Origin: a virus
Lineage: Duplodnaviria; Caudoviricetes
Reading direction: 5' to 3' (one strand)
IMG/VR virus record: IMGVR_UViG_3300033143_006241
Span: 1 to 52,390 of that record
DNA length: 52,390 bases
Each line of letters opens with the position of its first letter. Position 1 is the stretch's first letter. The translations under genes were made by a program, and so were the position numbers. Below the pieces are notes generated by a model that did no database searches, was not told where the DNA came from, and saw nothing but the letters and a program-made list of their open reading frames with translations. This document shows, in pieces, positions 1,617-49,291 of this stretch.

Positions 1617-1633
1617 ATGGTATGGGACTTGCA
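1617..1633 (+). promoter_or_regulatory. sigma-54-type -24/-12 promoter
   Basis: ATGGTATGGGACTTGCA (GG-N10-GC). It overlaps the ORF-track start at 1622, which implies a start at 1646 or later. Confidence 0.55.
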
Positions 1634-1645
1634 TCTATTTTAGAT

Positions 1646-2275
1646 ATGAAAAACTTTAAAACATGTAATTCAGTTTTTATAGGAACTCAGAAATTCAACT
1701 TTGATCAATATGGAATCATCAACACTGATTTTGGATACATCCAACGGCTTGATAACTCAATCAAAGTTATTAACACTACTAAGATTGACATGCCCGTCAA
1801 CTGTCCCTGTGGTAAATGTAATATCATTACAAAAAAAATAGATCCATGGGATACAATTTATAATATACCAGCCAAGGTATACGGAGATGTTATTAGATTT
1901 AAAAAGGCGGGCTGGAAAAATATAAGAATAATAACATGTAATGAAACAAAAACTCAACTACCTATAATAAGAATGTCTCTAACTATATTTAAAAAACATT
2001 TTAATATTAAAAAATATATTTTACCATTCTATTATAACAAATACAAATCAAACATAACAACACTATCACATTCACACAAACATTTTGAGTTTATTTTACA
2101 CGAAGAGAGGGCAGACACACCAGCCATGAACTGTTGTGTATTCGACGACAACGTAGACAACAAAGCAATATATATAACAATGGCAATGATAAGCGCCCAA
2201 CTTGATGGTAAAAAAGTATGGTATGCTTTTGACAAAAAGGAGGGTTTAAAATTTGTTTCTTTTAAAGTTTCCTAA
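1646..2275 (+). CDS. hypothetical protein
   Basis: ORF 1622..2275 with the start moved downstream of the predicted promoter; contains CPCGKC; no family recognised. Confidence 0.55.
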   Translation: MKNFKTCNSVFIGTQKFNFDQYGIINTDFGYIQRLDNSIKVINTTKIDMPVNCPCGKCNIITKKIDPWDTIYNIPAKVYGDVIRFKKAGWKNIRIITCNETKTQLPIIRMSLTIFKKHFNIKKYILPFYYNKYKSNITTLSHSHKHFEFILHEERADTPAMNCCVFDDNVDNKAIYITMAMISAQLDGKKVWYAFDKKEGLKFVSFKVS

Positions 2276-2304
2276 TCTATTTATTACCAACTAAGTTTCT
2301 GTTC

Positions 2305-2535
2305 TTATTTATCATCACCACTATTAATGTCTATATTTATACCTGTATTACTTATAAATTCAAGCAGTTCTGTAGGAACTGCATCATCAGTCTTCCAATA
2401 AAAACTTAAATTAGCTCGCAAATCGCCTTCACATTTTACTCCCATATTCATACGGTTATATGTAGACTGATCGTATTGTTCTTTACTGAACTCTAAGTAT
2501 TCAACCTTAACAAAAGGAATATTGATTGTTTGCAT
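2305..2535 (-). CDS. hypothetical protein
   Basis: 76-aa ORF with a GGAG RBS upstream. Confidence 0.6.
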   Translation of the reverse strand: MQTINIPFVKVEYLEFSKEQYDQSTYNRMNMGVKCEGDLRANLSFYWKTDDAVPTELLEFISNTGINIDINSGDDK

Positions 2536-2601
2536 TACAACGCTCCACTTTAATTATTTACAACAAAACTAAATACGTATCTAATCTATCAACAGCAGAT
2601 T

Positions 2602-2631
2602 AAAAAACAAGGGCTGCCTAAGCAGCCCCTT
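2602..2631 (-). terminator. intrinsic terminator downstream of the Clp ATPase gene
   Basis: Minus strand reads GGGCTGC-TTAG-GCAGCCC followed by TTGTTTTTT. Confidence 0.85.
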
Positions 2632-2653
2632 ACCCACGTCCCTTACCATTACT

Positions 2654-4582
2654 TTAGTTACAACACTTTGTACAGGTATCACACCTATTCGCAACAACCT
2701 TTTCCGAAACAAAATTAGTTATAGTATTACAATGTTTATAGATAACTTTTTTGTTCTTAACTCTTGTACTAATTACAGTATCTTTTTCAATACCGTGTTT
2801 AATAATGTAATCAGCCAAAGAATCGGACACAACATTTTCTACAGTCCGTTTTATTTCCCGAGCACCATAGGTTTCAGAATAACCTTTCTTTAGTATAAGT
2901 CTTTTTACAGCTTGAGAAAAGTTTATAAAAATATGCTTATCTTCTAAATAATTATTTAACTTATCTAGTTCAAGTTCAACAATTTTAGAACAGGATTTTT
3001 TATCCATATCATTAAAATATACAGTACCTGTCAATCTATTTAAAAACTCCGGTTTAAACATATCTTTTATAGCTTTTTTTATTACTATATTTTTTCGTTT
3101 ACTTGTTATTTTATTTACATCACCAAATCCAATTGTTTTTCCTATACCTTGAACTTCTGTAGCCCCTATATTTGAAGTCATAAGAATTAGTGTATCTTTA
3201 AAGGATACAACTTCACCATGATTATCTGTTAACCTTCCTTCATCCATTATCTGAAGCATTAATTGATGAACTTTTTCACTTGCTTTTTCTACTTCATCAA
3301 ACAATACTACCGAAAAAGGATTTTCAAGAATAGCATTTGTAAGTATACCACCCTCGTCGCTGCGAACATAACCATTTGGGCTTCCTATAAGCTTCGAATA
3401 CTCATGATCAGCAGAATACTCAGAACAATCTATTCTAATAAAGCCACCTTCGGCCTCTTTCTTAAACAATTCATCTGCCAAAACTTTAGCTAGTAATGTT
3501 TTACCTACACCTGTTTTACCAGCGAGCAAGAAAGATCCTATTGGACATACTGGATCTTTAATTCCTATTTTAGATCTCTTTAAAGCTCTTATTATATCAT
3601 TAGTGGCACCCTGTTGCCCTATTACTAATTTATTAAGTTCACCTTCTAAATCTAACAATTTATCAGACGAAATATCCTTTAATGTCTTATATTCTGTTTT
3701 CTGCACTACTCTTTTACTTGAAGAGGATGCTATATTTGTTTTTTTATTTAATTTTTTATAGTTAGCCCCAGGATTAACGGCTACGCATAGTTCATAAAGC
3801 TCGTCAACCACTTGTTGTGGGGTAAATTTTGTCAATAATCCAAACCTGTCTATAAGACCAAATACAGATTCAATATCTTTTATAAACGATGTTATTATAA
3901 AAGATTTATAAGAGGGCTCATCTTCATAATTTCCCATCAAGACTACTTCTTTGAGATTATCTACTTCGAATTTTCTAATAATCACATACATAATAAGTCT
4001 ATCCCACCACTTCTTTACATAAACATGCTTTGTTTTTTTAACAGCTTCTATTGTTTTTAGTATGTGATCATCTAATGTTTGTCCATTTGATTTTTCAGAT
4101 TCATGACCCTCTACTGCTGCGTTTTCTGAACCAACAATCTCGTTAACAGTTTTATCATCAAATACAGCATCCTCCATTGGGCTATCTTTTGTGTTCCAAG
4201 ATGGGTTTTCAACAAACGGATACCCATCAACCTCACCGCTGTCATCTACTCTAATAAGACCAAACGGGTTTACAATTAAACCGTCTGGATTTAATAAAGG
4301 ATTAATTTTATATAATTTTATTAAAAGCCCTTCTCTGAATACATCAAAATTAGAAACAAGATCTTTGTTAGAATTAATAAAATATAAAAGTTGTCCTATA
4401 TTAATAACATAAATAGATAATATATAATCTTCATACCTTCTTTTTGGGATCAAACCTCTTTCTTTTGAAAACATCGAAAGCTCTGATTCGATATCTTCTT
4501 TGTTATCCATTTTTAAAATCCTAACCGACATGCCTATTTTATCAAAAGGAACCTGTATTACTTCATACTTTTTATTATCCAT
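2654..4582 (-). CDS. Clp/Hsp100-family ATPase with only the second (D2) AAA+ module and an unrecognised N-terminal region
   Basis: GSFLLAGKTGVGKT (Walker A), RIDCSEY, LFDEVEKA (Walker B), GRLTD, ILMTSNIG, FKPEFLNRL, YGAREIKR. Confidence 0.9.
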   Translation of the reverse strand: MDNKKYEVIQVPFDKIGMSVRILKMDNKEDIESELSMFSKERGLIPKRRYEDYILSIYVINIGQLLYFINSNKDLVSNFDVFREGLLIKLYKINPLLNPDGLIVNPFGLIRVDDSGEVDGYPFVENPSWNTKDSPMEDAVFDDKTVNEIVGSENAAVEGHESEKSNGQTLDDHILKTIEAVKKTKHVYVKKWWDRLIMYVIIRKFEVDNLKEVVLMGNYEDEPSYKSFIITSFIKDIESVFGLIDRFGLLTKFTPQQVVDELYELCVAVNPGANYKKLNKKTNIASSSSKRVVQKTEYKTLKDISSDKLLDLEGELNKLVIGQQGATNDIIRALKRSKIGIKDPVCPIGSFLLAGKTGVGKTLLAKVLADELFKKEAEGGFIRIDCSEYSADHEYSKLIGSPNGYVRSDEGGILTNAILENPFSVVLFDEVEKASEKVHQLMLQIMDEGRLTDNHGEVVSFKDTLILMTSNIGATEVQGIGKTIGFGDVNKITSKRKNIVIKKAIKDMFKPEFLNRLTGTVYFNDMDKKSCSKIVELELDKLNNYLEDKHIFINFSQAVKRLILKKGYSETYGAREIKRTVENVVSDSLADYIIKHGIEKDTVISTRVKNKKVIYKHCNTITNFVSEKVVANRCDTCTKCCN

Positions 4583-4598
4583 GTTGTTTTAAATTCTC

Positions 4599-5504
4599 CT
4601 ATTCTTTAAAAGTAGTTGAAGTTAAACCGGATCTTACTATTAAACCTGCCTCACTTGCCGTTAATTCATCAATAGACTTTTGTTTTCCTATAATTTGTTC
4701 AATATAATCTTCTATAGCAACTCCTTTCATCTTAGCAAGATTAAGTATAACAAGTTTTTGTGTGTTTTTAGGACTAGCCGTTGTACCACCAAGATCACCA
4801 TAATCAAAACCGTGATCAACCACAGAATTATCTTCTGATTCCGTTTGTGTAACAGGTTCCTCTTGAGTTTGTTCTTCTTTCTTCTCAACAGTTTCTGTTT
4901 TAGGAACAACATCTATTTTCTTTTTTGATGCTGCCAACCTTTTTTTAAGTTCTATTATTTTACTATTTTTTTCAGCAGCATTTGGTTTACTAACCTTTTG
5001 TTCTGCTTGTTTTGGTGGACTTTGTTTACCTGAATCCTGTGAAACAGGCTTGCTTGTATTCGTTTGTTTATTATCGATATCAGAAACTCTAACATACTCT
5101 CCTGTAATTGGATCTTTAGTAACATCCATTTCTTTATTTCCAATACAAAGCTGCTTTGAACAAGCCTTCAAGCTATCCATGACAGCGTTTCCATACGCAT
5201 CTCCAAGATTAACTGGTTTTCCTTTGTTAATACCGCTAGTATACTTGTGTATTGGCGCAGAACCAAAGGCCTCTTTTTTTATAACATTATCACCAACTGT
5301 AGCTGATAATTCTAATAACAAAAGAACAGTATCATCATTAATTACTTTATGTGAAATTACACGTGTATTCCACAAACAACCAAACACTTCATTTAGACGA
5401 CTACGTATTGCAGATGCAGGGACATAAGGATACTTTTGTTTTGGTAATATTCTTATTTCTATTTCTTTTTCTAAAGCTTTAACTAAATCTTCATTCTGTG
5501 CCAT
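4599..5504 (-). CDS. Rad52/Rad22-family ssDNA annealing protein
   Basis: YVPASAIRSRLNEVFG..W and A..DSLKA...L.IG motifs; low-complexity linker; AGGAGA RBS. Confidence 0.75.
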   Translation of the reverse strand: MAQNEDLVKALEKEIEIRILPKQKYPYVPASAIRSRLNEVFGCLWNTRVISHKVINDDTVLLLLELSATVGDNVIKKEAFGSAPIHKYTSGINKGKPVNLGDAYGNAVMDSLKACSKQLCIGNKEMDVTKDPITGEYVRVSDIDNKQTNTSKPVSQDSGKQSPPKQAEQKVSKPNAAEKNSKIIELKKRLAASKKKIDVVPKTETVEKKEEQTQEEPVTQTESEDNSVVDHGFDYGDLGGTTASPKNTQKLVILNLAKMKGVAIEDYIEQIIGKQKSIDELTASEAGLIVRSGLTSTTFKE

Positions 5505-5537
5505 CTTGAATCTCCTATGTTTTTTACTATGAATTAA

Positions 5538-5554
5538 TGCAATATGTGTGCCAA
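5538..5554 (-). promoter_or_regulatory. sigma-54-type promoter upstream of the Rad52-like gene
   Basis: TTGGCACACATATTGCA. Confidence 0.85.
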
Positions 5555-5559
5555 ACTGT

Positions 5560-5886
5560 TGGTGGAGGCGGCGAGAATCGAACTCGCGTCTTAAGTACCA
5601 AATTAAAAACCATTATACAGCAATTTGCTATAATTTGCTATCTATAAAACTAATACTAAATACCTTAACATATAATGCAGTTGTTAGGTTTCTGTTCCAA
5701 GGTGCCTAACCGCCCGTGTAGCTATATATTAGCTACAAGTGCTACTTTGTCTGCCTTTATAGCAGAGTTTACGTAGCCGTACATATTAGTGTTAATTATT
5801 TTTTTGATACGTTTTTAAGTAGTCAAGTATCATCTACTTGCTGTGATTATTCAAATTGTTTACCTAATCGAACCCTGATCGCCCCC
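5560..5886 (-). ncRNA. ssrA: tmRNA (327 nt)
   Basis: 5' GGGGGCGATCAGGGTTCGAT and 3' GACGCGAGTTCGATTCTCGCCGCCTCCACCA. The 7-bp acceptor stem has G3:U. pk1 is formed by AAGTAG/CTACTT and TGATAC/GTATCA. A tag ORF lies at 5793-5722. Confidence 0.95.
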
Positions 5887-5909
5887 ATATTTTATTTAAT
5901 ATATACTCA

Positions 5910-5926
5910 TGCAAATTCTATGCCAA
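5910..5926 (-). promoter_or_regulatory. sigma-54-type promoter upstream of tmRNA
   Basis: TTGGCATAGAATTTGCA, overlapping the UDG stop codon. Confidence 0.8.
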
Positions 5927-6445
5927 AGATAACTCATACGCTTTTTTAATACAATCAAAAAATTTCTGTTTTGGTGCATAATTTCTCAAATAGTAAGAAG
6001 GATGGCAAATAGGCATAACCATCATACCATTTAAAATTTTATGAATATTTCCTTCTTCTTTTGTAATAGATTTGAGTGTTGGTATAAAAACTTTTGAAGC
6101 AACCCTACCTAACAAACAAATAACTTTAGGTTTTACCTCAATAATTTCACGCACTAAATAGGGTAAACATGTTTCAATTTCTAAATCTTTTGGATCTCTA
6201 TTTTTCAGGGGTCTGCATTTTACTATATTTGAAATATAAATATTATCCCGTGTAATATCTATGCAGTTTAAAGCCTCATCTATAAGATCCCCGCTTCTAC
6301 CAACAAAGGGTATCCCTTGTTTATCTTCTTCCCTGCCGGGGGCTTCCCCTACGAACATTAATCTAGCATGGTTATTTCCTTTACCATTTACTATATTAGT
6401 TCTAGTTTTATATAATTCACACGCCTTACAATTTTCTATTAACAT
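5918..6445 (-). CDS. uracil-DNA glycosylase, family 4
   Basis: CxxC Fe-S ligands, FVGEAPG.EEDKQG.PFVGRSG, NIVKCRP..NRDP, HPS. Confidence 0.95.
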   Translation of the reverse strand: MLIENCKACELYKTRTNIVNGKGNNHARLMFVGEAPGREEDKQGIPFVGRSGDLIDEALNCIDITRDNIYISNIVKCRPLKNRDPKDLEIETCLPYLVREIIEVKPKVICLLGRVASKVFIPTLKSITKEEGNIHKILNGMMVMPICHPSYYLRNYAPKQKFFDCIKKAYELSLA

Positions 6446-6482
6446 AAAAAACCATTCCTATTCTACTTTTGATAAGTATTAA

Positions 6483-6499
6483 TGCAATTCTTGTGCCAA
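6483..6499 (-). promoter_or_regulatory. sigma-54-type promoter upstream of UDG
   Basis: TTGGCACAAGAATTGCA. Confidence 0.85.
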
Positions 6500-6503
6500 C
6501 ACA

Positions 6504-6719
6504 CTATAATCTAGTCATTTTGATAGGCTCAGAAATCACTACTCCAGGAGTAGGGGGACATGTAGGTAACCATTTACCACCAATATTTATACTTCCAGTC
6601 TTTCCAAATTTATCTGGATAACAAAATAAAACGGAACACTTATTACATTTATATATTCCTGGCATTTCTGGAGAAACAATAGAATATGAATTATTACCAC
6701 ATATAGGACATTTAAACAT
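6504..6719 (-). CDS. small zinc-ribbon protein
   Basis: CPICG...CNKC; AGGAG RBS. Confidence 0.65.
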   Translation of the reverse strand: MFKCPICGNNSYSIVSPEMPGIYKCNKCSVLFCYPDKFGKTGSINIGGKWLPTCPPTPGVVISEPIKMTRL

Positions 6720-6732
6720 AATTAACTCCTAA

Positions 6733-6945
6733 TTATTCATCTTCTTTTATCACTTTAACATTAGCGCTTTGAATACCATACTCACTTTCGACAACCTCGT
6801 ATTCAACCAACTGCCCAGGATAAACTACTTTATACCCATCCCCTTCAATTGCAGAATAATGTACAAATACATCCTTTCCATCAGATCCTGTAATAAAACC
6901 ATGACCTTTTTTACCATTAAACCATTTAACTCTTCCTGTAGCCAT
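6733..6945 (-). CDS. cold-shock domain protein
   Basis: [16 protein letters not shown] (RNP1) and DVFVHYSAI (RNP2); GGAGG RBS supports ATG 6945. Confidence 0.95.
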
Positions 6946-7011
6946 CTTAAATCCCTCCAAATCGTAAAATTTATAGCTATAACACTACTATACTATAAAA
7001 AGCTCAGACAG

Positions 7012-7362
7012 TTAATCTACGCCAGCTGTTGAAGAGATATTACCTAAAACCCCTGTAAGAGGATGGCTATCATCACGAGGTGTTTCTTGTAACATTCTTT
7101 TGGTTTCTTCTTTTATTATAAACTTCTTTTTTTCACTACCTTTAAGAAAATACCAATCAGGTCTTTTATATTTTTTAATATTATTACCTTTGTTTATTTC
7201 TTTGTCTAGTTTCTTGTGATCAGGGGTAAAATATTCACACCTGCGTTTTTTTCTAGCTTTTAATTTTATTTTACTAACATTACATATAGATAAAACGTCA
7301 TCATAATTACTACACCAAATACATTTTATACTTTTATTTTTATAGTCAATTATTGGTTCCAT
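7012..7362 (-). CDS. hypothetical protein, Cys-containing and basic
   Basis: 116-aa ORF tiled in the operon; CxxC...C...C. Confidence 0.6.
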   Translation of the reverse strand: MEPIIDYKNKSIKCIWCSNYDDVLSICNVSKIKLKARKKRRCEYFTPDHKKLDKEINKGNNIKKYKRPDWYFLKGSEKKKFIIKEETKRMLQETPRDDSHPLTGVLGNISSTAGVD

Positions 7363-7363
7363 T

Positions 7364-7723
7364 TTAAATTCCTATCCTTTCAAGAATTTTGAAAAAAACA
7401 TCAATATCCAAAATGACGATACCATCTTCGTGATTACGTTTACAAAATAAAAGCCAGTCTGTTCCTTTCGCCTTGTTTTTCTTAACTTGTCTTATCCAGG
7501 CAGGTACAGACATATTTTCACATCTTTTACACTCTATACTATAAGGAAACCTATATTTCGCATCCGCCAAAAGCCTTATGTCCGTACCCGCCTGGCCCAT
7601 CTCCCTACTGGCAATACACTCATCCTTGCCCCAAGGAAGACCTAACAGCTTAGATATTCTCTTCGCTATATCATTTTGGAATTTTTTACCTTTGTTTTTG
7701 GCAGATCGTGGTTTAATTGTCAT
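7364..7723 (-). CDS. PD-(D/E)XK nuclease, probable Holliday junction resolvase
   Basis: SAKNKGKKFQ, GTDI and IECKR motifs, as in phage Hjc-like resolvases. Confidence 0.75.
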   Translation of the reverse strand: MTIKPRSAKNKGKKFQNDIAKRISKLLGLPWGKDECIASREMGQAGTDIRLLADAKYRFPYSIECKRCENMSVPAWIRQVKKNKAKGTDWLLFCKRNHEDGIVILDIDVFFKILERIGI

Positions 7724-8150
7724 CTTTTTCTACACCATCATCATCAATATAGATGTTATCCGCCCAATCAGCACCGTAACGTTCTATGATTTCTTTAAAA
7801 TCTTCAAGATCGTGTAGAAGTATTTTACAAACAGGATTACCCTCTTTGTCCTCATCAATAAAGAGGTGGTGTAGTTCGTGGTCCAATAAAGCTTTTCTTT
7901 GTTCTTCAACCATTATATCCCAAGCATCTTCATAAATAGAAATAATAAAATCAATATCAGTTAAATAATTAAACTTGGGAGAAACAACCTCAGACGTTCC
8001 AAGAACAACTTTGCCTCCACGCTTTCTAAGCTTATCATAGAACAGACACTTGATTTTAACATTACGTAAATTCAAATAATACTCGTTTATTAATTCATGC
8101 ATTAATGTGTAAACTTCTTCGCCACATTCTCTAAAGATTACTTTGGTCAT
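7713..8150 (-). CDS. putative phage metallopeptidase
   Basis: ALLDHELHH (HExxH) and HDLEDF..II.RYG. Confidence 0.8.
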   Translation of the reverse strand: MTKVIFRECGEEVYTLMHELINEYYLNLRNVKIKCLFYDKLRKRGGKVVLGTSEVVSPKFNYLTDIDFIISIYEDAWDIMVEEQRKALLDHELHHLFIDEDKEGNPVCKILLHDLEDFKEIIERYGADWADNIYIDDDGVEKDDN

Positions 8151-8472
8151 CAGCAGTAGCCTCCTTTTCTAAAATCTTAAAATACATTGATACTACATCT
8201 TCAAAACCATTCAAAGGCGGAAACACTTTAATAACATTATTTAAAGATAAGGTTTCATTTGTTATTTTTTGAATCATCGGAAACCCATAGGGAATAACAT
8301 AAAATCCAAATTTAGTATCTTCACCTTCTTTAACTTCTCTTGGTACAATAAGAGCTGCATCACGTATTAACTCGTCTGCAGTACTAACTTTACCTACAAC
8401 CAATTCCCCAGTCACCAATTTACATATAGACACATCCTGATTTTCCGCACCATTAGCAAATGTACAATTCAT
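8131..8472 (-). CDS. hypothetical protein, possibly Sm-like fold
   Basis: KLVTGELVVG N-terminal pattern; GGAGG RBS. Confidence 0.55.
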   Translation of the reverse strand: MNCTFANGAENQDVSICKLVTGELVVGKVSTADELIRDAALIVPREVKEGEDTKFGFYVIPYGFPMIQKITNETLSLNNVIKVFPPLNGFEDVVSMYFKILEKEATADDQSNL

Positions 8473-8486
8473 AATTCTTTCCTCCG

Positions 8487-8702
8487 TTATAATTTAATTG
8501 AAATAATTCCTTTTAAACCTTTATTTAAATTTATAGTTGTTTCTTTTGGTAACATTTCGTGTCCGCATTTAGGACACAACTTAACCGTAAAAGGAGCATC
8601 ATATGCACGTTCAACAGTCTTGTCTTTATTTCCACATCTTTTACAACAGTATCTCCAAAGTTTAAGATTTAATGTTTTTTGTTTTTTGTTATGTTGTTTC
8701 AT
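8487..8702 (-). CDS. FmdB-like zinc-ribbon protein
   Basis: Y.CKRCG...CPKCG. Confidence 0.6.
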   Translation of the reverse strand: MKQHNKKQKTLNLKLWRYCCKRCGNKDKTVERAYDAPFTVKLCPKCGHEMLPKETTINLNKGLKGIISIKL

Positions 8703-8715
8703 TGTTTTACTCCAT

Positions 8716-9177
8716 TTATTTACCTGTCGATCCTAATTTTCCAGCGCCGCGTTCTGTTACATCTATTTCATCAATCTCTACTGGAATAAAGTGTATAACA
8801 GGTCTAAATATAATTTGAACATATTTACCAGGCAGTTCTAAATCAGGCCCATTAATATCATATTTTAACATCGCTGCTATAATAGTTCCGATGTAAGAAA
8901 AATCTATTATCCCAATATTATTAGCTAACATGTGACCTGTTTTTGATAAACTACTTCTTGCAACAAGATCTACATAATATCCTTTCGGTGGTCTAACAAT
9001 AACACCAGAATCATATAAAGAAACTTCCCCAAAGGAGCCTTTTCTTATTATTTTTAATTTTTTAATTAATGTAATATCATAACCACTGTCTGTATCATAG
9101 GCTAATGATGGTAATACAGCACCCTCAAGTAATTTACATTCAAACTTTTGATCCAAACCATATTTAAACTCTTCCAT
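8716..9177 (-). CDS. dut: dUTPase (trimeric type)
   Basis: DSGYD, RSS, GIIDFSYIG, ERG.G..GSTG motifs. Confidence 0.92.
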   Translation of the reverse strand: MEEFKYGLDQKFECKLLEGAVLPSLAYDTDSGYDITLIKKLKIIRKGSFGEVSLYDSGVIVRPPKGYYVDLVARSSLSKTGHMLANNIGIIDFSYIGTIIAAMLKYDINGPDLELPGKYVQIIFRPVIHFIPVEIDEIDVTERGAGKLGSTGK

Positions 9178-9197
9178 TTAAATCTCCATTTCTAAAT

Positions 9198-13343: not shown

Positions 13344-13362
13344 GTGTTTCCTTTAATTTTAG

Positions 13363-14388: not shown

Positions 14389-14419
14389 AAGATAAATCCT
14401 CTACTTTCTACTTTACATA

Positions 14420-36660: not shown

Positions 36661-36693
36661 ATTTTGAAAATTATTCACCCTATGCCTTAAATG

Positions 36694-37110: not shown

Positions 37111-37113
37111 ATA

Positions 37114-39543: not shown

Positions 39544-39554
39544 GATTAAATCCT

Positions 39555-39878
39555 TTATAAACTACTTTTTATACTTGTTGGTAAACATATTATAATAATA
39601 ACCCATAATATATTAGTTATACACCAAACAGTCCAAGCAGGTATATAATAAAATATTTTTAATATAGAAACAATCGTTGGAGCGTTCTCAAACCAATTAC
39701 CTAACTTTGTATAAGTAACATCACTATAAAAATGACCATAACGAGTTCCAAAAAAATCTACATAAGGTGTATCATATTTTAAATAAGACAAGTGCCCGTC
39801 ATGAAAAATATCTGTTGGTTGCCAATCATTTAAATATTTTTTTATAATTGTTAATATTTTTAGTATGTTATAATACAT
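39555..39878 (-). CDS. hypothetical protein with a hydrophobic C-terminus
   Basis: 107-aa ORF with a possible transmembrane segment. Confidence 0.5.
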   Translation of the reverse strand: MYYNILKILTIIKKYLNDWQPTDIFHDGHLSYLKYDTPYVDFFGTRYGHFYSDVTYTKLGNWFENAPTIVSILKIFYYIPAWTVWCITNILWVIIIICLPTSIKSSL

Positions 39879-39882
39879 TTAT

Positions 39883-40101
39883 TCACTCCTCAAGCATATT
39901 TATTCCACATACTTTGACCTGATCCCACAATAAAATATAACCTCTTTCTTCTAAATAATGACAATAACCATAAGAACAACCGTCGTCATCTTCCCCATAT
40001 TCCCAATACGGACATAATTTTATTTTATACTTGCCGTCTTTGAATCCAAGAGGTGTATAACAATAATCACCGTGAGGTATTTCTGTAAATTTTTTCTTCA
40101 T
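39883..40101 (-). CDS. small Cys-rich hypothetical protein
   Basis: IP.G.YCY...CPYW...YC.YL...LWDQVK.CGIN. Confidence 0.65.
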   Translation of the reverse strand: MKKKFTEIPHGDYCYTPLGFKDGKYKIKLCPYWEYGEDDDGCSYGYCHYLEERGYILLWDQVKVCGINMLEE

Positions 40102-40104
40102 TTT

Positions 40105-41334: not shown

Positions 41335-41359
41335 AAAATTTTCCCCTTATCCTATATAA

Positions 41360-42182
41360 TTATTTACACTTTAAATCATTATATCTACAACCTTCTTGTT
41401 GATGAACCCATTCGTGGCATTTCTTACATAATGTTATACAACTGTCAGGGTCATTTGCCTGCATTTTATTTTGCGCATACGGAGTAATATGATGAACATG
41501 TAATTGCGCTGTTTCTGTTGTTGCTCCACATCTCAAACAAGCGTAGTCATCTCTTTCTAAAACAATCTGACGAAGTAATGGGACAACCTCGCGGGAGGTT
41601 GCTTTTTTAAAACCTTTTGGCCACAATTTCTGGTTATAAATTGGACAAGCCTGTTTGCAATTTTCCGAACAATAAAAACGATATTCTGAATTATTTTTAC
41701 ATTTTCCGTTTAATGCTTTAATACGGCTTTTAACTGCCTGATTTGTTGGTATATACTCTTTTCCACAATAAGCACATAATACTATCAATTCTCCATTTGA
41801 TCCTTTTTTTTACTTTTTCAGCAAACGAAATTTTAGCAACATAATTATTATAAACAGCTTGAGAATATAAATATTTTTTAGAACGTATTGCAATTTCTTT
41901 TTTGTGTGTTTTAACATATTGTTGTGATATTTTTATGTTTCTTTCTCTATTAGCATAATATCTTATTTTATTTTTTATTTTTATTTCTTCTTTTTTATTT
42001 TGATAATTTATTTTTACTTGTTTTTTTAATTTCTTTTTATTATTTTTATAATATAACCTATTATTAATAGCACTACATTTTTTACAGCACGCATGCTTAC
42101 CGTCTTTTCTGGACTTATCATTATAAAATTCAGAAATAGGTTTTTTTATTTTACACTTATTACAAACTTTATATTTAACCAC
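41360..42182 (-). pseudogene. HNH endonuclease split by a frameshift in an A8 run
   Basis: Upstream ORF has CNKC..K...EF...CKKC. Downstream ORF has ERD.Y.C..CG, HVHHI, LC..CH..H. Removing one A at 41804-41811 joins them as EKVKKGSNGELIVLCAYCG. Confidence 0.75.
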
Positions 42183-42199
42183 AATATATCCTAAATATT

Positions 42200-43336
42200 T
42201 TATTTCTTCTTCCTACGAACATCCAAAATTGCTGACGTATAGCTTACATTTGATATAGCCCGTGCCTCTTCTTTAGTAATCACGCCGCTTTTAATTAACA
42301 TATCAAGTTTTTTATTTACAACATTGACACATTTAATCAAATCATCTGCCCCTATAATATTATACAAAGCAGAAGGATCGTAACTTACTCTTGGCGTTTG
42401 TCTTATAGAAATATTAAAATCTTCAGTAGGTGCCTTATTATTTTTAGTAGCTCTTATCTTACCAACCAAAATAGATCTAATATTTTTTTGTTTAAGTTCT
42501 AAAATTTTACTCAATTTACGTATTTTATCATACGAATCGGCCAAAGTATTCTCATCGTCAAACATTTGGTGATCTGGTACGCTATCTTTTATTTCTTTAA
42601 TAGCAGGACACACATCTACGTATTCACACCATGGACAAAATTTATTAAGTTCTGGTACTAAATCTCCCTTCTTTGCTTCTAAAATTAATTTATAATTAGT
42701 TTTAAGTAATTGAATAAAAGAATATCTTTGTTCTTCAGTTCTTTTGTTATGTTTTGGAAAAAATCTTAAATAATCAAGACACACTGAATAATTAGTATAA
42801 CCAGGGAAAAGTTTTCTAGCTGCAGCATCGTACAAAGAAAGTTGCACATCTGTTTCGACCTCATCATCAGTAAGAACGCTCTTTGATGTTTTATAATCTA
42901 TAACACATAAGGAATCAGCGTTAAATTCAACTACTTTATCCATTGCACCAATAAGAGGAACACCGGCTATCTCAACAGTAAAGCGATCCTCTAATGATAT
43001 AATTTTATGACTAAATTCAAACCTATCTAATTTAGTTAAAAGCAAATTAAAACCATCGTATATAAGAGCCTCATCTCCCAAATTTAAACGAGAACACTCT
43101 TCTATATACTTACTTGTTATTAATTCTGTATCATCTTTAGTAAATGACTTTAAGTTACTTTTTATCACCATTTGTCCTGCATACTCTAATGCGTAATGAA
43201 CTGATGATCCAACAGCAAAATAGTCTTTTGGTGGTTCTACAGGCTTAGGAGCTAACTTATGGTAAACACATCCATATTTATATTTACACTGTAACCATGT
43301 TTTTAATCTTGACGCTGATAGAGCTTTTACTTTCAT
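42200..43336 (-). CDS. RecB/Cas4-like PD-(D/E)XK exonuclease
   Basis: SASRL.....C, G..VH..LE, GAMD, IDYKTS, QL.LY, CPWCEY...CP. Confidence 0.88.
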   Translation of the reverse strand: MKVKALSASRLKTWLQCKYKYGCVYHKLAPKPVEPPKDYFAVGSSVHYALEYAGQMVIKSNLKSFTKDDTELITSKYIEECSRLNLGDEALIYDGFNLLLTKLDRFEFSHKIISLEDRFTVEIAGVPLIGAMDKVVEFNADSLCVIDYKTSKSVLTDDEVETDVQLSLYDAAARKLFPGYTNYSVCLDYLRFFPKHNKRTEEQRYSFIQLLKTNYKLILEAKKGDLVPELNKFCPWCEYVDVCPAIKEIKDSVPDHQMFDDENTLADSYDKIRKLSKILELKQKNIRSILVGKIRATKNNKAPTEDFNISIRQTPRVSYDPSALYNIIGADDLIKCVNVVNKKLDMLIKSGVITKEEARAISNVSYTSAILDVRRKKK

Positions 43337-43350
43337 ATAGTGTTCTCCAT

Positions 43351-44169
43351 TTACTTTGAGTTTAATAATCCCTGTAAAATATTCTTATCTTCAACTGAAA
43401 AGGAAGATGCATCAGGAAATTTTATTTCAATATTTACTACAAGATGACCAGCACCACCACGACCATCAGGAATGCCACCACCCTGTATAAGAATATTTTC
43501 CCCAGGCCTTACCCCTGGTTTTATGTGAATTATATGTTCTATTGTTTTTTTACTTCCTAACCCACTACCGTTACATTTATCACATTTCTCTTTTACTACT
43601 TTTCCAGAACCACCACAAGAGCTGCATGTCATCATTATATTTGAATTTGGACCACGTTGTACTACTCTCATTCCAGAACCACCACAAGCCTCACATGTTC
43701 TAAATTCTTTAACACCAGTGCCATTACAAGCATTACACGGTTCGTCATAATTAAATTTTATATTTTTTTCACAACCAAAAGTAACTTCATATAAGTTTAA
43801 TGTAACAGTTATATTTATCACCTTGGTACGAGCCTGCTCGTAACCGCGTGAACCTTGTTGTCTTCCAAAATTCATATTAAAATGAGAAAACATATCTTTA
43901 AAAGGATCTCCACTAAATCCACCAGAACCACCAAACCCATTAAACCCACTACTGTTAGGATCTGCTCCCATATCATACATCTGTCTTTTTTTCTCGTCAC
44001 TTAAAACAGAATAAGCACTGTTCACTTTTTTAAAGCGCTCTTCAGCCTTTGCATCACCCTGATTTCTGTCTGGGTGGTACTTTAATGCTTGCTTTCTAAA
44101 GGCGCTTTTTATATCTTCTTGAGATGCGGCCTTATCTACACCTAATGTTTCATAATAACTTTGTGACAT
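43351..44169 (-). CDS. dnaJ: DnaJ chaperone
   Basis: J domain with HPD, G/F region, four CxxCxGxG repeats; GGAG RBS supports ATG 44169. Confidence 0.93.
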   Translation of the reverse strand: MSQSYYETLGVDKAASQEDIKSAFRKQALKYHPDRNQGDAKAEERFKKVNSAYSVLSDEKKRQMYDMGADPNSSGFNGFGGSGGFSGDPFKDMFSHFNMNFGRQQGSRGYEQARTKVINITVTLNLYEVTFGCEKNIKFNYDEPCNACNGTGVKEFRTCEACGGSGMRVVQRGPNSNIMMTCSSCGGSGKVVKEKCDKCNGSGLGSKKTIEHIIHIKPGVRPGENILIQGGGIPDGRGGAGHLVVNIEIKFPDASSFSVEDKNILQGLLNSK

Positions 44170-44209
44170 ACTTATCTCCAATCGTCAATCTTCAATCTAT
44201 AATAAACTA

Positions 44210-44226
44210 TGCAATATACATACCAA
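44210..44226 (-). promoter_or_regulatory. sigma-54-type promoter upstream of dnaJ
   Basis: TTGGTATGTATATTGCA. Confidence 0.75.
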
Positions 44227-44228
44227 AA

Positions 44229-44606
44229 TTAAACAGAAAATTCAAGCACTGATCCTTTTACATATAAGGTTTTCTTAGAATCTGATAAAGATATTGATAT
44301 TATAGCAAACACTTGGTTATCTTTCAAAGCTGGATATTTGCTGTTAGCAAAGAGTGCTTCAACTAAATCAACAGAAGACAAATGTCTAGCACCTTCTTTA
44401 TCAAAAACTACTTTAAACTCGTCAGTATCTTCATTTTTTTCTGCTTCTTCAAAAAAATCTGGATACATTTCTGAAAATTTACCAGAAAATGGCACAGAAA
44501 ACCAACAATTCTCAGTAATTGTCTTAAGATTATACATATGAGATGGTAAAAGAACTAAACCAGGCATACCTTTAAATACTTTATTATCTTCTGTGCTATT
44601 TGTCAT
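44229..44606 (-). CDS. hypothetical protein
   Basis: 125-aa ORF with an AGGAG RBS. Confidence 0.65.
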   Translation of the reverse strand: MTNSTEDNKVFKGMPGLVLLPSHMYNLKTITENCWFSVPFSGKFSEMYPDFFEEAEKNEDTDEFKVVFDKEGARHLSSVDLVEALFANSKYPALKDNQVFAIISISLSDSKKTLYVKGSVLEFSV

Positions 44607-44618
44607 TTTCTTTTCTCC

Positions 44619-44948
44619 TTATACTAAATCTACATTATTAACATTTATATCGGTCCAATATGCCTTAAACATTTCTCCACATGAAGAACACGCTTTATCA
44701 TAAGAACTAATTCTCAAATCACCTTCCATTTTGACCAAAGTATCTTCTGGAATTTCTGCAATTATCTCAGCCAGATCAGACCAAGTTATGAAATTATAAA
44801 ATTTATGTTTCAATTCACCATCCCTAGTAGTAAATGGTATTGCAATTTTTCCCTTAGTATAAGGACTTCCATTTTTAGTGTAATTTAAAGTACTTTCTAC
44901 AATTTTTCCTACCATTGTTACCAAAAGGTAACCATCTTGTTCAGACAT
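44619..44948 (-). CDS. ssb: single-stranded DNA-binding protein (OB fold, no acidic tail)
   Basis: T.NG, W..LAE, V..EG.L...SY; CxxC insertion. Confidence 0.75.
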   Translation of the reverse strand: MSEQDGYLLVTMVGKIVESTLNYTKNGSPYTKGKIAIPFTTRDGELKHKFYNFITWSDLAEIIAEIPEDTLVKMEGDLRISSYDKACSSCGEMFKAYWTDINVNNVDLV

Positions 44949-44990
44949 AATCTTATTCTCCGTTTTATATGTATTTTAACTGTGAAAGAA

Positions 44991-45007
44991 TGCAACATCT
45001 ATGCCAA
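44991..45007 (-). promoter_or_regulatory. sigma-54-type promoter upstream of ssb
   Basis: TTGGCATAGATGTTGCA, overlapping the primase stop codon. Confidence 0.8.
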
Positions 45008-46015
45008 CATCGTATGTTCTGTTCTATATTTACCTAATATTTTATCTATTTCTTTTTTTGTTAAATCTGCAGGATCTCTATCATATTCTGATATAACGGG
45101 AACAAGGGGTAATGTTAAATTATATTTATTATTTGTTATTATTGTTCCTTGTATCCCAGCAGAATCAGAATCAAAAAATAAAACTATCTTTTTTAAAGTA
45201 CTTATAAGCAATCTAATTTGATGTGGTACTAACAACGAGCCCATACAAGCAACAACATTATCATAACCATATTCATGCAATCTCCATACCGATTTAAAGC
45301 CTTCAACAATAATAATATAATCAGACTTAGTATTTTTTGCTACATTTAAATTATATAATATATCTCCTGCAGTAATATTACCTATAAGTAAATATTTTCT
45401 TTGTTTTAATTTATTTGATATATCTCTTCCAGAATAGCCAGATAAAGCTCCATTATAATCATATATAGGAATTAATGCACGATTTATACCAAAGTCATCA
45501 GTATAGGCCTCTGATACATTAAAAAAATTTAAAATTTCCTTATTAAATGGACCTCCACCTAAAGGGGGAAAACTTAAAAAATAATCACAAGGTCTAGTAT
45601 CTAATTTAATTGATGTAATATTATAGTTATCTTGTGTGGCGTGTTTTAAATAATTTAAAAACAAAGCATCCTTTTTAGAATTATCATCAAGATCACCATC
45701 TAAAAAAGTTGGCTTATCAACAGCAAATTCAGTACAAAATTTGTTTAAAGCTTCTCCAAACGAACATTTAAATATCACTTTAATCAAATCAAAAAAAGAT
45801 GACCCATATATCTCATTACATTTATTCGAAAAACATCTCCAAATTAAAGTGTTCTTATATAAACAAAAAGAATCTTTACGATCTCCGCCATGAACCGCAC
45901 ACGGAGCACGTACAGAAGAGGAATCACTGGTCATATTTGAAAAACCTAACCAACTCAAAACTCTCTCATATCCTATACCACCAACAATAAGGGATAAACT
46001 GCAATAATTTACCAT
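44999..46015 (-). CDS. dnaG: DnaG-type primase
   Basis: C..H...SF...W.CF...C zinc finger, IPI....G....SGR, IIVEG, FDSD.AG (TOPRIM). Confidence 0.88.
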   Translation of the reverse strand: MVNYCSLSLIVGGIGYERVLSWLGFSNMTSDSSSVRAPCAVHGGDRKDSFCLYKNTLIWRCFSNKCNEIYGSSFFDLIKVIFKCSFGEALNKFCTEFAVDKPTFLDGDLDDNSKKDALFLNYLKHATQDNYNITSIKLDTRPCDYFLSFPPLGGGPFNKEILNFFNVSEAYTDDFGINRALIPIYDYNGALSGYSGRDISNKLKQRKYLLIGNITAGDILYNLNVAKNTKSDYIIIVEGFKSVWRLHEYGYDNVVACMGSLLVPHQIRLLISTLKKIVLFFDSDSAGIQGTIITNNKYNLTLPLVPVISEYDRDPADLTKKEIDKILGKYRTEHTMLA

Positions 46016-47508
46016 GAATCAGCAATCTCCGCAACTTTGCTTTTATCTTTTTTAGGTTTTATATCATTGATAAGTTCATCTTTTATTTCTTCATATTCCT
46101 CTTCTGTTGCCTCATATTCTTTATAGTCTATAAGTTGTGCTTCAGCTTCCTGAATATTTAAAATAGATTTTCTAAAATGAACCCCAATACCTTCAAACGG
46201 TGTTTCACCGCCCCTACGTGAATGTTTAATAAAAAATTTATACAAACCGCCTTGAAAACCTAATTTTTCTATTTCTTCTTTTTTCTTTTCTTCAAGTACT
46301 ATAACAGTATCAGCATACCTTGCAATTCTATCACTATCTGCAATATCACCACTACGACCACGCTGAACAGCCGCCAAAATAGGTATGTTCAATATACCGG
46401 ACAAATCTTTTAGAGCAATTGTTGTATTTCCTAACAATTGATATTCTTTTACTGTAGAAAAATCTTCTTGAGAACCTGATTTTATATAATCAAAAATAGC
46501 AAGACCTATTCCATATTTGCTATGATACTTTTTTATAAGAGATATAACTGTTTCTATTTTAAAACCTGGTAAATATTTATGAAAATATTTTCCTTTAGTC
46601 TTTAACAGTTTAGAAGCCATCACTAGTAACTCTTTCTCTGCATCGGTTAAATTTCCGCGTTTAATTCTTTTTTCTGGTATCTTTGTAAGCCTAGACAAAA
46701 TACGAGAATAATTTTGCTCTGTAGACATCTCCGTGTCGATATAAAGAATTGGAATACCTAACTTAAAAGCGACATGTAGTGCTATACACATTGACATACA
46801 CGACTTCCCACCTTTTTTAAATGCTGCTATAACATTAAGTGTCCCATTAACTAAGCCATCCAATCTATCATCTAATATAGGAAAACCTGTTGATAATCCT
46901 ATCATGTCTACTTTATTATTTAATACTTTTTCTACATATGAACCCATATTTGAGAATATATCTTCTGGATCATCGCTTACACTATCGTTTTGCATTAAAT
47001 TCAAAAGACCAAATTCTACATCATTTATTACATCTAAAGATTTCACATCATGATTTGTTAAAACACCCTCTAAATCATTGGTCTTTTTATCTAAATAAGA
47101 CATTAACTTATTCTTTTTACTTATATTAAGAAGTTTTTTAATATATAAATCTATATTTGTAAAATCAAACGAAGAAGATATTTCATATAAAGAATCTACT
47201 TGAAGATTAATATTTGCTATAGTTCCAACACCATTTTCTTCACAAGCTTTTACAATACTGTTTTTCTTATTGATAGTAAAATAATTTAATACTTCGTTGA
47301 TTAATGTCAGCTTATCTACAGAAGGAACTTCGTACTTATACACATTACAACAAGCCCTGAATAACAACTTATTAAATGGAATTACAAAGTCATCATCCGT
47401 AACAAAGGATAATACATTCAAAAAATCGTTGTAAGATTTTATAACATTTGCCAATACGAGACGTTCAACCGTCATATCAGTTGAAATCTTTCTATTACCT
47501 TGCTTCAA
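46009..47508 (-). CDS. dnaB: DnaB-like replicative helicase
   Basis: GLSTGF..LD....G, GKS, DTEM, FDYI, A.Q..R, IAD; TTG start with an AGGAG RBS. Confidence 0.9.
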   Translation of the reverse strand: MKQGNRKISTDMTVERLVLANVIKSYNDFLNVLSFVTDDDFVIPFNKLLFRACCNVYKYEVPSVDKLTLINEVLNYFTINKKNSIVKACEENGVGTIANINLQVDSLYEISSSFDFTNIDLYIKKLLNISKKNKLMSYLDKKTNDLEGVLTNHDVKSLDVINDVEFGLLNLMQNDSVSDDPEDIFSNMGSYVEKVLNNKVDMIGLSTGFPILDDRLDGLVNGTLNVIAAFKKGGKSCMSMCIALHVAFKLGIPILYIDTEMSTEQNYSRILSRLTKIPEKRIKRGNLTDAEKELLVMASKLLKTKGKYFHKYLPGFKIETVISLIKKYHSKYGIGLAIFDYIKSGSQEDFSTVKEYQLLGNTTIALKDLSGILNIPILAAVQRGRSGDIADSDRIARYADTVIVLEEKKKEEIEKLGFQGGLYKFFIKHSRRGGETPFEGIGVHFRKSILNIQEAEAQLIDYKEYEATEEEYEEIKDELINDIKPKKDKSKVAEIADSW

Positions 47509-47965
47509 AGTGGTGCTCCTGGTCTCTTCTTGATAACTCTTTTTTTAATCCATTACAATAAACTTCAATATATTTATCTATATTATCTAACAACATAAGT
47601 TCTGTTGAAATAACTTGAAACTGTTCACTTTTCTTTTCCAACTCAGGAGAAGCACCAATAGCTAAAAACCTTCTTTCAGCCTTGGTTCCTTTATTTAACC
47701 CAGTAGAAGCAATAAATGTAGCAATACCTATTTCTATATCACGATCCAAAATAGCCTTTCTAATTCTTAATTTATTTATTTCTAATATCACATATATGAG
47801 GTATTGTGACAACGCCACTATAAACTTTGTAATATCACTATCATCAATAGTATCTAACTCATTAACATTAAATGATAAAGCTTTATCTATAATACTTTGG
47901 CTAGGTTTTATTTTTCCCATACCTACTCTATCTAACGTATTATTTATTATACTATCTGTTTCCAT
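47495..47965 (-). CDS. hypothetical helical protein
   Basis: 156-aa ORF between the ligase and helicase genes. Confidence 0.6.
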   Translation of the reverse strand: METDSIINNTLDRVGMGKIKPSQSIIDKALSFNVNELDTIDDSDITKFIVALSQYLIYVILEINKLRIRKAILDRDIEIGIATFIASTGLNKGTKAERRFLAIGASPELEKKSEQFQVISTELMLLDNIDKYIEVYCNGLKKELSRRDQEHHFEAR

Positions 47966-49204
47966 TTAGTCACCATCTTTATCTTTTCTTAAACTACAAA
48001 ATCTTGGAAACCTTAAGCTTCCATCTTTTGTTACACTGTCTGCTTCAACTTCAATTACTACACCTAACATTTTTTCTTTGTTTTCCCAAAATTCTTTTTT
48101 TTGTTTATCTGACATTTTACCAGGTCCCACATTAACTATTATACCATTGAAATTAACAACAAATGAACCAAGAGAATTTTCATTTTTTCCTGTTCCTTCA
48201 ATACAATCTACAACAGTTAAATCATAAGTTTCTGTAGGTTTCATTTTTAACCACGTTCTTCTTTTTTCATAACAAGACAAAAATTCTTTCAAAACAATAC
48301 CCTCATACCCCATATCTAAACAATAACTATAAAAATGTAAAACATCTTCTTCATTATCCATCATCGTATGCGGAATTAATTTTATCCAATCTGAATTAAA
48401 AGAAGATAGAATATCCAATAACCTACTATATCTTTTAAATACTGGATCACTACTACTATCAACAGATTCCCATTCTGTAAGATAAATTGAATCCATTATA
48501 TTGTATTTTAAACCAGAACGATCTTGATTATATTTTCTACTTATTTTCATAGAATCGTTCCAATCACTACCCATTAACTCCCCATCAAACACCAAATTAG
48601 TTTTTCCACAATAATCATTAAGAACATTTGATATCTCTGGAAAATACAACTCTCTACCGTTTCTAGAAAATAAACGATAATTGTCTCTTTGAGGAATTGC
48701 TATACATCGTAATCCGTCAAGCTTTGGAGAAACCAAATATCTCCCCCTTGGTATATCATTTATAAGAGTGCATAATTGAACATCGAACTCTGGGATAAGT
48801 TTTGGAATAGCCTTGTTTATTGTTTTAGCGGCCATTCCAATTCTTAAATCCTTTTTTAAAACGAGAAGACAAAGTTCAGCAATATCTTTACGTAATTCAG
48901 ATAAGATATCAACTAATTCATCTAAATCAGAGTTAGAACATCCTATTTTATCTATTTGACATTCTAAAAATAATATAAACCTATCTATATCTAGTCTAAA
49001 ACCTGATCCAACCATCTTATTTTGTTTTAATTTTTTTAAGGAAGCACTACCTATATTAAAAACCTTATAAGGATCATAAGTAACATTTAAAATATACTTG
49101 ATAGACTGTAATGTCGGTTCTTTTACATTTTTTAAAATATTAATCTTTTTGTTTGTAGATCTTGTACTTGAAACCTCATTTAAAATATTTAAAATATTAT
49201 CCAT
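47966..49204 (-). CDS. ATP-dependent DNA ligase
   Basis: PKLDGLR (motif I), FDGE, EG.VLK, W.K.KP, SLRFPRF...R.DK; GGAG RBS supports ATG 49204. Confidence 0.93.
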   Translation of the reverse strand: MDNILNILNEVSSTRSTNKKINILKNVKEPTLQSIKYILNVTYDPYKVFNIGSASLKKLKQNKMVGSGFRLDIDRFILFLECQIDKIGCSNSDLDELVDILSELRKDIAELCLLVLKKDLRIGMAAKTINKAIPKLIPEFDVQLCTLINDIPRGRYLVSPKLDGLRCIAIPQRDNYRLFSRNGRELYFPEISNVLNDYCGKTNLVFDGELMGSDWNDSMKISRKYNQDRSGLKYNIMDSIYLTEWESVDSSSDPVFKRYSRLLDILSSFNSDWIKLIPHTMMDNEEDVLHFYSYCLDMGYEGIVLKEFLSCYEKRRTWLKMKPTETYDLTVVDCIEGTGKNENSLGSFVVNFNGIIVNVGPGKMSDKQKKEFWENKEKMLGVVIEVEADSVTKDGSLRFPRFCSLRKDKDGD

Positions 49205-49274
49205 GTTTATTTCTCCAATTTGGAACGAATAACAAGAATTGAATAAGCTACACACCGTAATTTGACTTTAACCA

Positions 49275-49291
49275 TGCAATAACTATGCCAA
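49275..49291 (-). promoter_or_regulatory. sigma-54-type promoter upstream of the ligase-helicase-primase genes
   Basis: TTGGCATAGTTATTGCA. Confidence 0.85.

Follow-up and report, generated by a model that had tools for sequence, protein, structure and literature searches.

Eleven -24/-12 boxes with the layout of sigma-54 promoters in a phage replication module

The IMG/VR viral record IMGVR_UViG_3300033143_006241 (52,390 bp, rated ~21% complete; "the window" below means the whole of this stretch) comes from a jumbo phage and carries a replication, repair and chaperone module in which eleven copies of the box TTGGCAY-N5-TTGCAT stand at gene boundaries. The boxes are real, non-random and conserved, and their placement is promoter-like. 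From sequence comparisons we consider it fairly probable that they are genuine -24/-12 promoters, which would be read by host sigma-54 (RpoN) RNA polymerase and would divide the replication module into about eleven units. Among the bacterial promoter classes, that of sigma-54 alone remains closed until it is opened by an ATP-driven activator, and we know of no textbook scheme of phage transcription that uses it.

The eleven boxes in the window

The original prediction had listed eleven boxes and had expected fewer than one match by chance. All eleven were recovered at their coordinates, where a minus-strand position in that list denotes the 5′ end of the box, that is, its higher coordinate. 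The chance estimate also held, as the looser pattern TGGYAY-N6-TGC matched the window 14 times compared with a mean of 0.74 (SD 0.89, maximum 4) in 100 dinucleotide-preserving shuffles of the window, none of which reached 14. The three surplus loose matches (25690, 30701 and 45477) are intragenic and lack TTGCAT. Scores from a weight matrix trained on the eleven boxes, which is circular for those eleven and independent for the related contig G001 described below, were two-peaked in the window: the eleven boxes scored 19.8-28.4 bits and all lie at gene boundaries, and the other five matches of at least 10 bits (11.0-17.7 bits) are all intragenic. The best of these sub-threshold matches, TTTGGTATAAATCGTGCATT (45474-45493, minus strand, 17.7 bits), falls within the primase gene, where it may be an internal site or one that has decayed.

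In this window, which is 94.5% coding and has 2,891 non-coding bases, all eleven boxes stand at a gene boundary and are oriented with the next gene, as had been claimed. Ten are on the minus strand, which holds nearly all of the genes, and one is on the plus strand within the sole plus-strand gene block. The spacing between the two halves is fixed. When TGGYAY-Nx-TTGCRT was counted in the window, in G001 and in a third contig, G027, N5 gave 21 matches (10, 5 and 6, respectively), and each of the spacings N2-N4 and N6-N9 gave 0-1. The GG and GC are invariant and 10 bp apart in 17 of 17 sites (11 in the window and 6 in G001), and the aligned consensus reads T-TGG-C/T-A-Y-R-N4-T-TGCAT. From centre to centre the two elements are 11 bp apart, as expected for sigma-54, whereas sigma-70-family promoters have a 16-18-bp spacer. 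The identification of the box with the RpoN consensus and its -24/-12 geometry was thus borne out, because TTGGCAY-N5-TTGCAT with its fixed N5 matches the published consensus. Through TTGC (~13 positions) the box is identical to the sigma-54 search consensus TTGGCATNNNNNTTGCT given in the accessible part of PMC6615313 for Clostridiales.

With the start site placed 12 nt beyond the GC, leaders of 21-60 nt with a Shine-Dalgarno (SD) site are predicted for seven protein genes, and one of 13 nt for the tmRNA. Reading along the minus strand, box 11 (49274-49291, TTGGCATAGTTATTGCAT, 28.4 bits) precedes the ATP-dependent ligase gene, whose start is likely at 49204, and then the DnaB/primase block, which together would form a ligase-DnaB-primase unit. 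Box 10 (44990-45007, TTGGCATAGATGTTGCAT, 26.6 bits) precedes ssb (44619-44948), a predicted unit with a 32-nt leader and an SD site, and box 9 (44209-44226, TTGGTATGTATATTGCAT, 23.2 bits) precedes dnaJ (43351-44169(44181)), the head of a putative dnaJ-nuclease unit. A methylase block would be transcribed from box 8 (36643-36660, TTGGCACAAAAACTGCAT, 24.4 bits), which precedes the gene at 35795-36598 and then the Dam-type methylase gene, with a predicted 35-nt leader and an SD site. Two small-gene units would follow: box 7 (16240-16257, TTGGCATAAATATTGCGT, 25.3 bits), at the low-coordinate edge of a sugar island, precedes a small open reading frame at 15942-16229, and box 6 (15911-15928, GTGGCATGGTTATTGCAT, 26.7 bits) precedes a small open reading frame (likely start 15880), an M15 peptidase gene and HAD-like genes. 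Box 5 (14419-14436, ATGGTATAGTTTTTGCAT, 19.8 bits) precedes the clamp-loader (dnaX-like) gene at 13363-14388, followed by the PolA block as far as ~6500, a candidate dnaX-PolA-dUTPase unit.

The remaining four boxes are clustered at the low-coordinate end of the window. Box 4 (6482-6499, TTGGCACAAGAATTGCAT, 24.7 bits) precedes the uracil-DNA glycosylase (UDG) gene (5918-6445), a putative unit of its own with a 27-nt leader and an SD site. Box 3 (5909-5926, TTGGCATAGAATTTGCAT, 26.9 bits) precedes the tmRNA gene, and its predicted start at ~5899 would lie 13 nt ahead of the mature tmRNA 5′ end. Box 2 (5537-5554, TTGGCACACATATTGCAT, 26.1 bits) precedes the gene at 4599-5504 and then a Clp-type ATPase gene, the presumed Clp block, with a predicted start at ~5527 and a 23-nt leader with an SD site. 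The plus-strand box 1 (1617-1634, ATGGTATGGGACTTGCAT, 21.5 bits) precedes the gene at 1646(1622)-2275, which would be nearly leaderless from the predicted start. A further likeness of ~15 nt downstream of the box, TTGCATTAATnC.TA..AAAA, is shared by the boxes at 5522-5554, 6467-6499 and 44975-45007, as in a repeat family.

The gene labels that had been attached to the boxes stood in large part. Rfam, Pfam and PHROGs supported the tmRNA, UDG, clamp-loader/dnaX-like, DnaJ, SSB and ligase assignments; for the "Rad52-like" gene (4599-5504 or 1622-2275) neither Pfam nor PHROGs returned a family. The presumed restriction-modification pair was upheld for its Dam-type methylase (35005-35820) and not for its restriction half (35795-36598), which had no Pfam or PHROGs family match. 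The tmRNA gene downstream of box 3 (5560-5886, minus strand) matched Rfam RF00023 at 86.1 bits (E 4.6e-32) and was not detected by ARAGORN.

The window has a GC content of ~29%, and Pfam assigned it a replication and repair set comprising a family-A polymerase with a LAGLIDADG intein, a clamp loader, a DnaN-like clamp, DnaB, primase, SSB, RecA, an ATP-dependent ligase, a PD-(D/E)XK nuclease, a Dam methylase, a dUTPase and UDG. DnaJ, a Clp-type ATPase with a single AAA+ domain and a phage metallopeptidase were also found by Pfam, as was an 18-kb island of nucleotide-sugar and glycosyltransferase genes at ~16-34 kb. This sugar island (16249-34528) is lower in GC (24-27%) and contains no box despite several gaps of 110-290 bp. 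With no boxes inside, it seems to be served by promoters of another type; G001 has an unlike segment of 9 kb in its place. An SD word is present ahead of 40 of the 70 window genes (57%) compared with 10% at random places. Predicted terminators were of little use, with 12 found versus 5.2 ± 2.5 expected in 1-17000 and 5 versus 4.9 in 34000-52390.

Occurrence of the box in a relative and in other phages

Conservation could be followed in one relative. G001 is a 114-kb viral contig, ~54% complete, whose DnaB is ~72% identical to that of the window and which is syntenic with the window at 14.4-15.3 kb and 34.7-52.3 kb. G027, a 22.7-kb contig met in the pattern scan, covers the counterpart of 1.6-14.4 kb, and its genes are 98-100% identical to those of G001 across the 7 kb that they share. 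The proteins of this G001/G027 phage are ~70% identical to those of the window. It carries ten distinct strict boxes (six in G001 and six in G027, two of them common to both). Orthologous strict boxes were found for window boxes 1 (G027 1547, TGGCACAAAAATTGCAT), 2 (G027 6308), 3 (G027 6902, GGGGGTGAAC, before a tmRNA-like gene), 5 (G001 63-82, the same as G027 15552) and 10 (G001 20464-20483, in diverged spacer DNA), and a degenerate partner for box 11 (G001 24398, TGTGGTGTAATTTTTGCATA, 15.5 bits). In pairwise alignments the box is a conserved island amid diverged spacer DNA. No strict box occupies the orthologous place of box 4 in G027, boxes 8 and 9 have no counterpart box in the relative (the place of box 9 was checked in G001), and for boxes 6 and 7 a clear one is lacking. 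Five of the six G001 boxes are in its first 28 kb and the sixth is at 71.2 kb among large genes; no box was detected within the giant genes of G001.

Two repeated elements were observed in the relative. The dnaX box of G027 is present in two copies (5606 and 15552), each with a leader stretch of at least 60 nt and identical over the ~95 nt compared, and the additional copy precedes the Clp-type ATPase gene; from its sequence the pair looks like a duplicated promoter cassette. A leader element of ~170 nt, with hairpin-like parts and a possible upstream open reading frame of five codons, is repeated just upstream of genes in G001 and G027. Full copies are at G001 ~114219, 84785, 83891 and 14700, the 3′ part only is at G001 ~27791 and 20009, and a G027 copy is at ~7856; the element is absent from the window.

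Attempts to extend the set of relatives gave little. A DnaB search returned G001 only, scanning metagenomes yielded a pair of short fragments and a pair of distant loci, and a Clp-type ATPase query and a genome scan produced no further relatives. The window gene at 209-1012 (plus strand) belongs to an HNH endonuclease family: many metagenome proteins, as well as named HNH endonucleases of bacteria, are 40-44% identical to its product. It is likely, on these similarities, to be a mobile gene bordering a divergent region, and its use as a probe for relatives was ruled out because the HNH family is widespread.

The box itself is found far beyond this lineage. When IMG/VR was scanned with a single 20-nt form of the box, at least 120 loci were obtained; among the loci listed, at least 48 have two or more matrix matches and at least 21 have three or more, and a shuffle of all 1.08 Mb gave a single match. 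Same-strand arrays were seen in several large phage contigs: 18 boxes in G007, all in its first 16 kb (210-16217), 20 in G022 (8289-25771), 17 in G011, 12 in the complete 361-kb genome G008, 11 of them within 13 kb (137841-151053), and 11 in G010. What G007, G008, G011 and G022 have in common with the window is limited to Clp, DnaJ, dUTPase and sugar enzymes; these four lack SD sites and look like Bacteroidota phages. For G008, blastn found no cultured relatives. In G007, G022, G008, G010 and G011 one box stands before each small gene and is followed by ATAG and then by AATTAAAATT..ATG, a conserved start region that lacks an SD site. A single box of G008 (339846, plus strand) lies ~20 nt ahead of a tRNA-like gene, paralleling box 3 before the tmRNA. 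At the other end of the size range, six contigs of ~10.8-11.5 kb (L136, L107, L160, L182, L189 and L210) have inverted terminal repeats that each contain two or three inward-facing boxes. One of them, L136, is a podophage of the phi29-like kind and encodes PolB, a gp16 ATPase, a connector and a phi29-type capsid protein, and Pfam found no polymerase except PolB in the 10.8-kb phi29-like genomes.

Candidate readers of the boxes

On the reading that we favour, host RNA polymerase carrying sigma-54 would dock on TTGGCAY-N5-TTGCAT and start transcription ~12 nt after the GC; the host would possess sigma-54, and sigma-54 would be the reader. The occurrence of the same box in unrelated phages makes a universal host reader, host sigma-54, the simplest common factor. 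The original prediction had also allowed for a sigma-54 encoded by the element itself, and searches of the window, of G001 and of 20 further viral contigs with boxes detected none. Neither the sigma-54 families PF04552 and PF04963 nor the sigma-70 region 2 and 4 families PF04542 and PF04545 matched in the window or G001, and Sigma54_DBD gave no match above the cut-off in any of the 20 contigs, nine of which are at least 90% complete. Among 50,697 phage records, only 16 matched a sigma-54 protein, and most of these, being unannotated or fragmentary, look like host DNA.

The opening of the promoters is a separate matter, because sigma-54 closed complexes normally require an ATP-driven activator. 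The statement that the window lacks a bacterial enhancer-binding protein was confirmed: its sole PF00158 protein is an AAA+ protein of the ClpB-D2 type without GAFTGA. This Clp-type ATPase (2654-4582, minus strand) scores 170.5 bits with AAA_2, 68 bits with ClpB_D2-small and 28.8 bits with Sigma54_activat, and it was rejected as a canonical enhancer-binding protein on account of these scores and the missing GAFTGA. No regulator was recognized by Pfam or PHROGs among ~50 window proteins. With neither an activator nor an enhancer in the phage DNA seen, firing would presumably depend on a host activator that needs no phage-specific site or on an unrecognized phage factor. An enhancer-independent activator or a bypass form of sigma-54, as suggested in the original prediction, is a conjecture, and the middle-phase switch proposed there is likewise hypothetical.

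Several observations weigh against reading by host sigma-54. No GAFTGA protein was found in the open reading frames of the window, G001, G007, G008, G011 and G022, and PF00158 matched nothing but Clp-type ATPases and, at a very weak score, the clamp loader. The 150 nt upstream of the 17 sites share no motif beyond AT-rich words, and the window has no repeated palindrome. The relative shares only five strict and one degenerate of the eleven box positions. Two CPR bins and a DPANN bin, which are among the metagenome bins holding the nearest relatives of the sugar genes, have no Sigma54_DBD match. To these are added a polymerase-like motif in G001, -10-like hexamers after the boxes and two boxes that pass a sigma-70 scan, which are described with the alternatives that they favour.

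The same bins bear on the host. The nearest relatives of the sugar genes lie on contigs in metagenome bins labelled CPR, DPANN, WOR-3 and Spirochaetes, and among these sigma-54 was found in the WOR-3 and Spirochaetes bins only. The bins hold no box clusters, and the few boxes in them are not followed by chaperone genes. A RecA atlas look-up returned viral clusters only, and no close cultured phage was found, the best DnaB matches being to Firmicutes phages at ~33% identity, which is weak. Widespread SD use does not fit Bacteroidota, and the SD words of the window genes therefore argue against a Bacteroidota host; from this feature the window phage is probably not a Bacteroidota phage.

A reader supplied by the phage is the alternative that survives best, and we regard it as possible but distinctly less probable. 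The boxes would then be promoters of the phage's own RNA polymerase or specificity factor, encoded in a part of the genome that has not been seen, and would only resemble sigma-54 sites. There is room for such a gene, since the window represents ~21% of its genome and G001 ~54%. A candidate exists in G001, where a 5,563-aa protein (89369-106060; L101 9-16700, minus strand) has the RNA-polymerase-like DxDGD motif NADLDGDEINVH at about residue 1694. Two-barrel RNA polymerases are marked by a metal-binding DxDxD loop within a double-psi beta-barrel. A homologue search with this protein returned 18 proteins including the query, and in 11 aligned sequences (the query and 10 homologues, several of them also giant at 2,529-5,537 aa) DFDGD..H is invariant or nearly so. 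This conservation suggests that the phage may own an RNA polymerase. The sole PDB profile match of the protein outside coiled coils was to the active-site stretch of RPC1 of RNA polymerase III, at a weak E value of 0.62. In phage P23-45 a virion RNA polymerase is fused to the tape measure and has its own promoter motifs, according to the accessible part of PMC10770324, and by its sequence the G001 protein may likewise be a virion RNA polymerase fused in a tape-measure-like protein. On the other hand, the polymerase reading of the giant protein is that of one short motif. Its structural model had a mean pLDDT of 62.4 and gave no fold match at E ≤ 0.001, and for the giant G001 proteins Pfam and PHROGs returned only lectin-like domains and the PDB sequence searches and the atlas returned nothing. 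A lineage-specific reader would not explain the box arrays in unrelated phages, including a 10.8-kb phi29-like one, nor would it account for ~13 positions that match the bacterial consensus with exact spacing. The absence of sigma-70 region 2/4 and sigma-54 domains from the window and G001 speaks against a phage specificity factor as well.

The second alternative, which we hold to be improbable, places the boxes in activator-dependent promoters of the sigma-70 family. The primary-sigma holoenzyme would act on a -10-like hexamer and the box would be the site of a phage or host activator that replaces the -35 contact, as T4 MotA and PhoB-type boxes do. A -10-like hexamer, defined by A2, T6 and at least four of six positions, follows TTGCAT by 3-6 nt in 10 of the 17 sites (P = 0.006), compared with 4.6 ± 1.8 in shuffles and 2-6 in other offset windows; with four extra G027 sites judged by eye the count is 11 of 21. 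Two boxes pass the sigma-70 scan with spacers of 16-17 nt, one of them box 8 as TTGGCA-16-TATAGT, TTGGCA differs from TTGACA by one mismatch, and the halves TGGCAT and TTGCAT resemble an 11-bp direct repeat. However, the hexamer is missing in 7 of the 17 sites and floats over four offsets (spacers 15-18, centred on 15-16 nt), and the invariant TTGCAT inside this "spacer" is left unaccounted for. The GG and GC are invariant in all 17 sites and the second letter is never swapped between the halves, indicating an asymmetric reader rather than a tandem dimer. Sigma-70-like sites are also not enriched (111 versus 95.9 ± 10.5 and 125 versus 107.2 ± 11.6), and an AT-rich stretch from -7 to -1 would be required for melting at a sigma-54 promoter too.

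Least probable, in our view, is that the boxes bind host sigma-54 polymerase and start no transcription, serving as silent roadblocks, insulators or an enzyme sink: sigma-54 holoenzyme does form stable inactive complexes, as described in the accessible part of PMC4591121, and the phage DNA searched yielded neither an activator nor an enhancer, but the boxes are single rather than arrayed, all face the downstream gene, and are separated by 21-60 nt from ribosome-binding sites and, in one case, by 25 nt from the tmRNA that follows, the layout of working promoters, and a decoy would require neither the orientation nor such a position.

Comparison with known promoter systems

The well-known enhancer-dependent sigma-54 promoters of bacteria include glnAp2, pspA and nifH. 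The window boxes share with this class a GG and a GC one helical turn apart, the TTGGCAY and TTGC flanks and a position just upstream of transcription units, and differ from it in having no enhancer-binding protein or upstream activator sequence nearby. Bacterial sigma-54 promoters serve metabolic and stress operons, whereas the window boxes precede what are, by sequence, phage replication genes and a tmRNA gene. The middle (MotA/AsiA) and late (gp55/gp33/clamp) transcription of T4 are switches to a non-standard promoter class. Host sigma-54 reading would resemble them in placing an entire module behind one special promoter type that is silent until a dedicated activator acts; T4, in contrast, appropriates sigma-70 or uses a phage sigma, whereas the window would rely on the host sigma-54 class with no phage factor identified.

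Full-text searches found no description of a phage-wide set of sigma-54 promoters, and Pseudomonas phage YuA was the sole precedent that we found. Three promoter fragments in its record (NC_010116) are annotated "high activity, -24/-12 consensus", and YuA depends upon sigma-70 as well as sigma-54 according to the accessible part of 10.1101/2023.10.13.562163, which cites Ceyssens et al. 2008. As would hold for the window, the phage's own promoters were assigned there to the sigma-54 class, and they were active in a promoter trap per the record. YuA differs in that its genome is 58.7 kb and its three fragments all lie in the structural-gene half; the window, unlike YuA, belongs to a far larger phage and has its eleven textbook boxes in the replication module. 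YuA shows no enrichment of the strict box, its first 50 kb giving 20 one-mismatch matches compared with 29 expected.

A second comparison comes from Bacteroidota and Planctomycetota, in which predicted sigma-54 sites are enriched before GroEL/ES, GrpE, DnaJ, DnaK and COG0542 Clp genes, as reported in the part of PMC12316311 that was accessible. The dnaJ and the Clp-ATPase block of the window likewise each stand behind a box. The window differs from those Bacteroidota in that 57% of its genes carry an SD word, and it adds a lineage with SD sites and a TTGGCAT-type box.

A bolder version of host sigma-54 reading, which we put forward only tentatively and think unlikely, is that phages turn the host sigma-54 polymerase into a private transcription channel without a canonical enhancer-binding protein, an unrecognized phage factor opening the closed complex. 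The opener might be a Clp-type AAA+ unfoldase, a protein that is common to the window and several other box-rich jumbo phages, or alternatively a small protein that strips an inhibitory part from sigma-54; the easily melted TA-rich stretch after the box would aid opening. If true, such a channel would represent the first activator-bypass of sigma-54 in nature, and phages would have a new strategy of take-over. If reading by host sigma-54 holds here, the missing activator becomes a concrete search target, and if it holds here and in the unrelated phages, host sigma-54 would give phage gene control an entry point that is general and has been overlooked.

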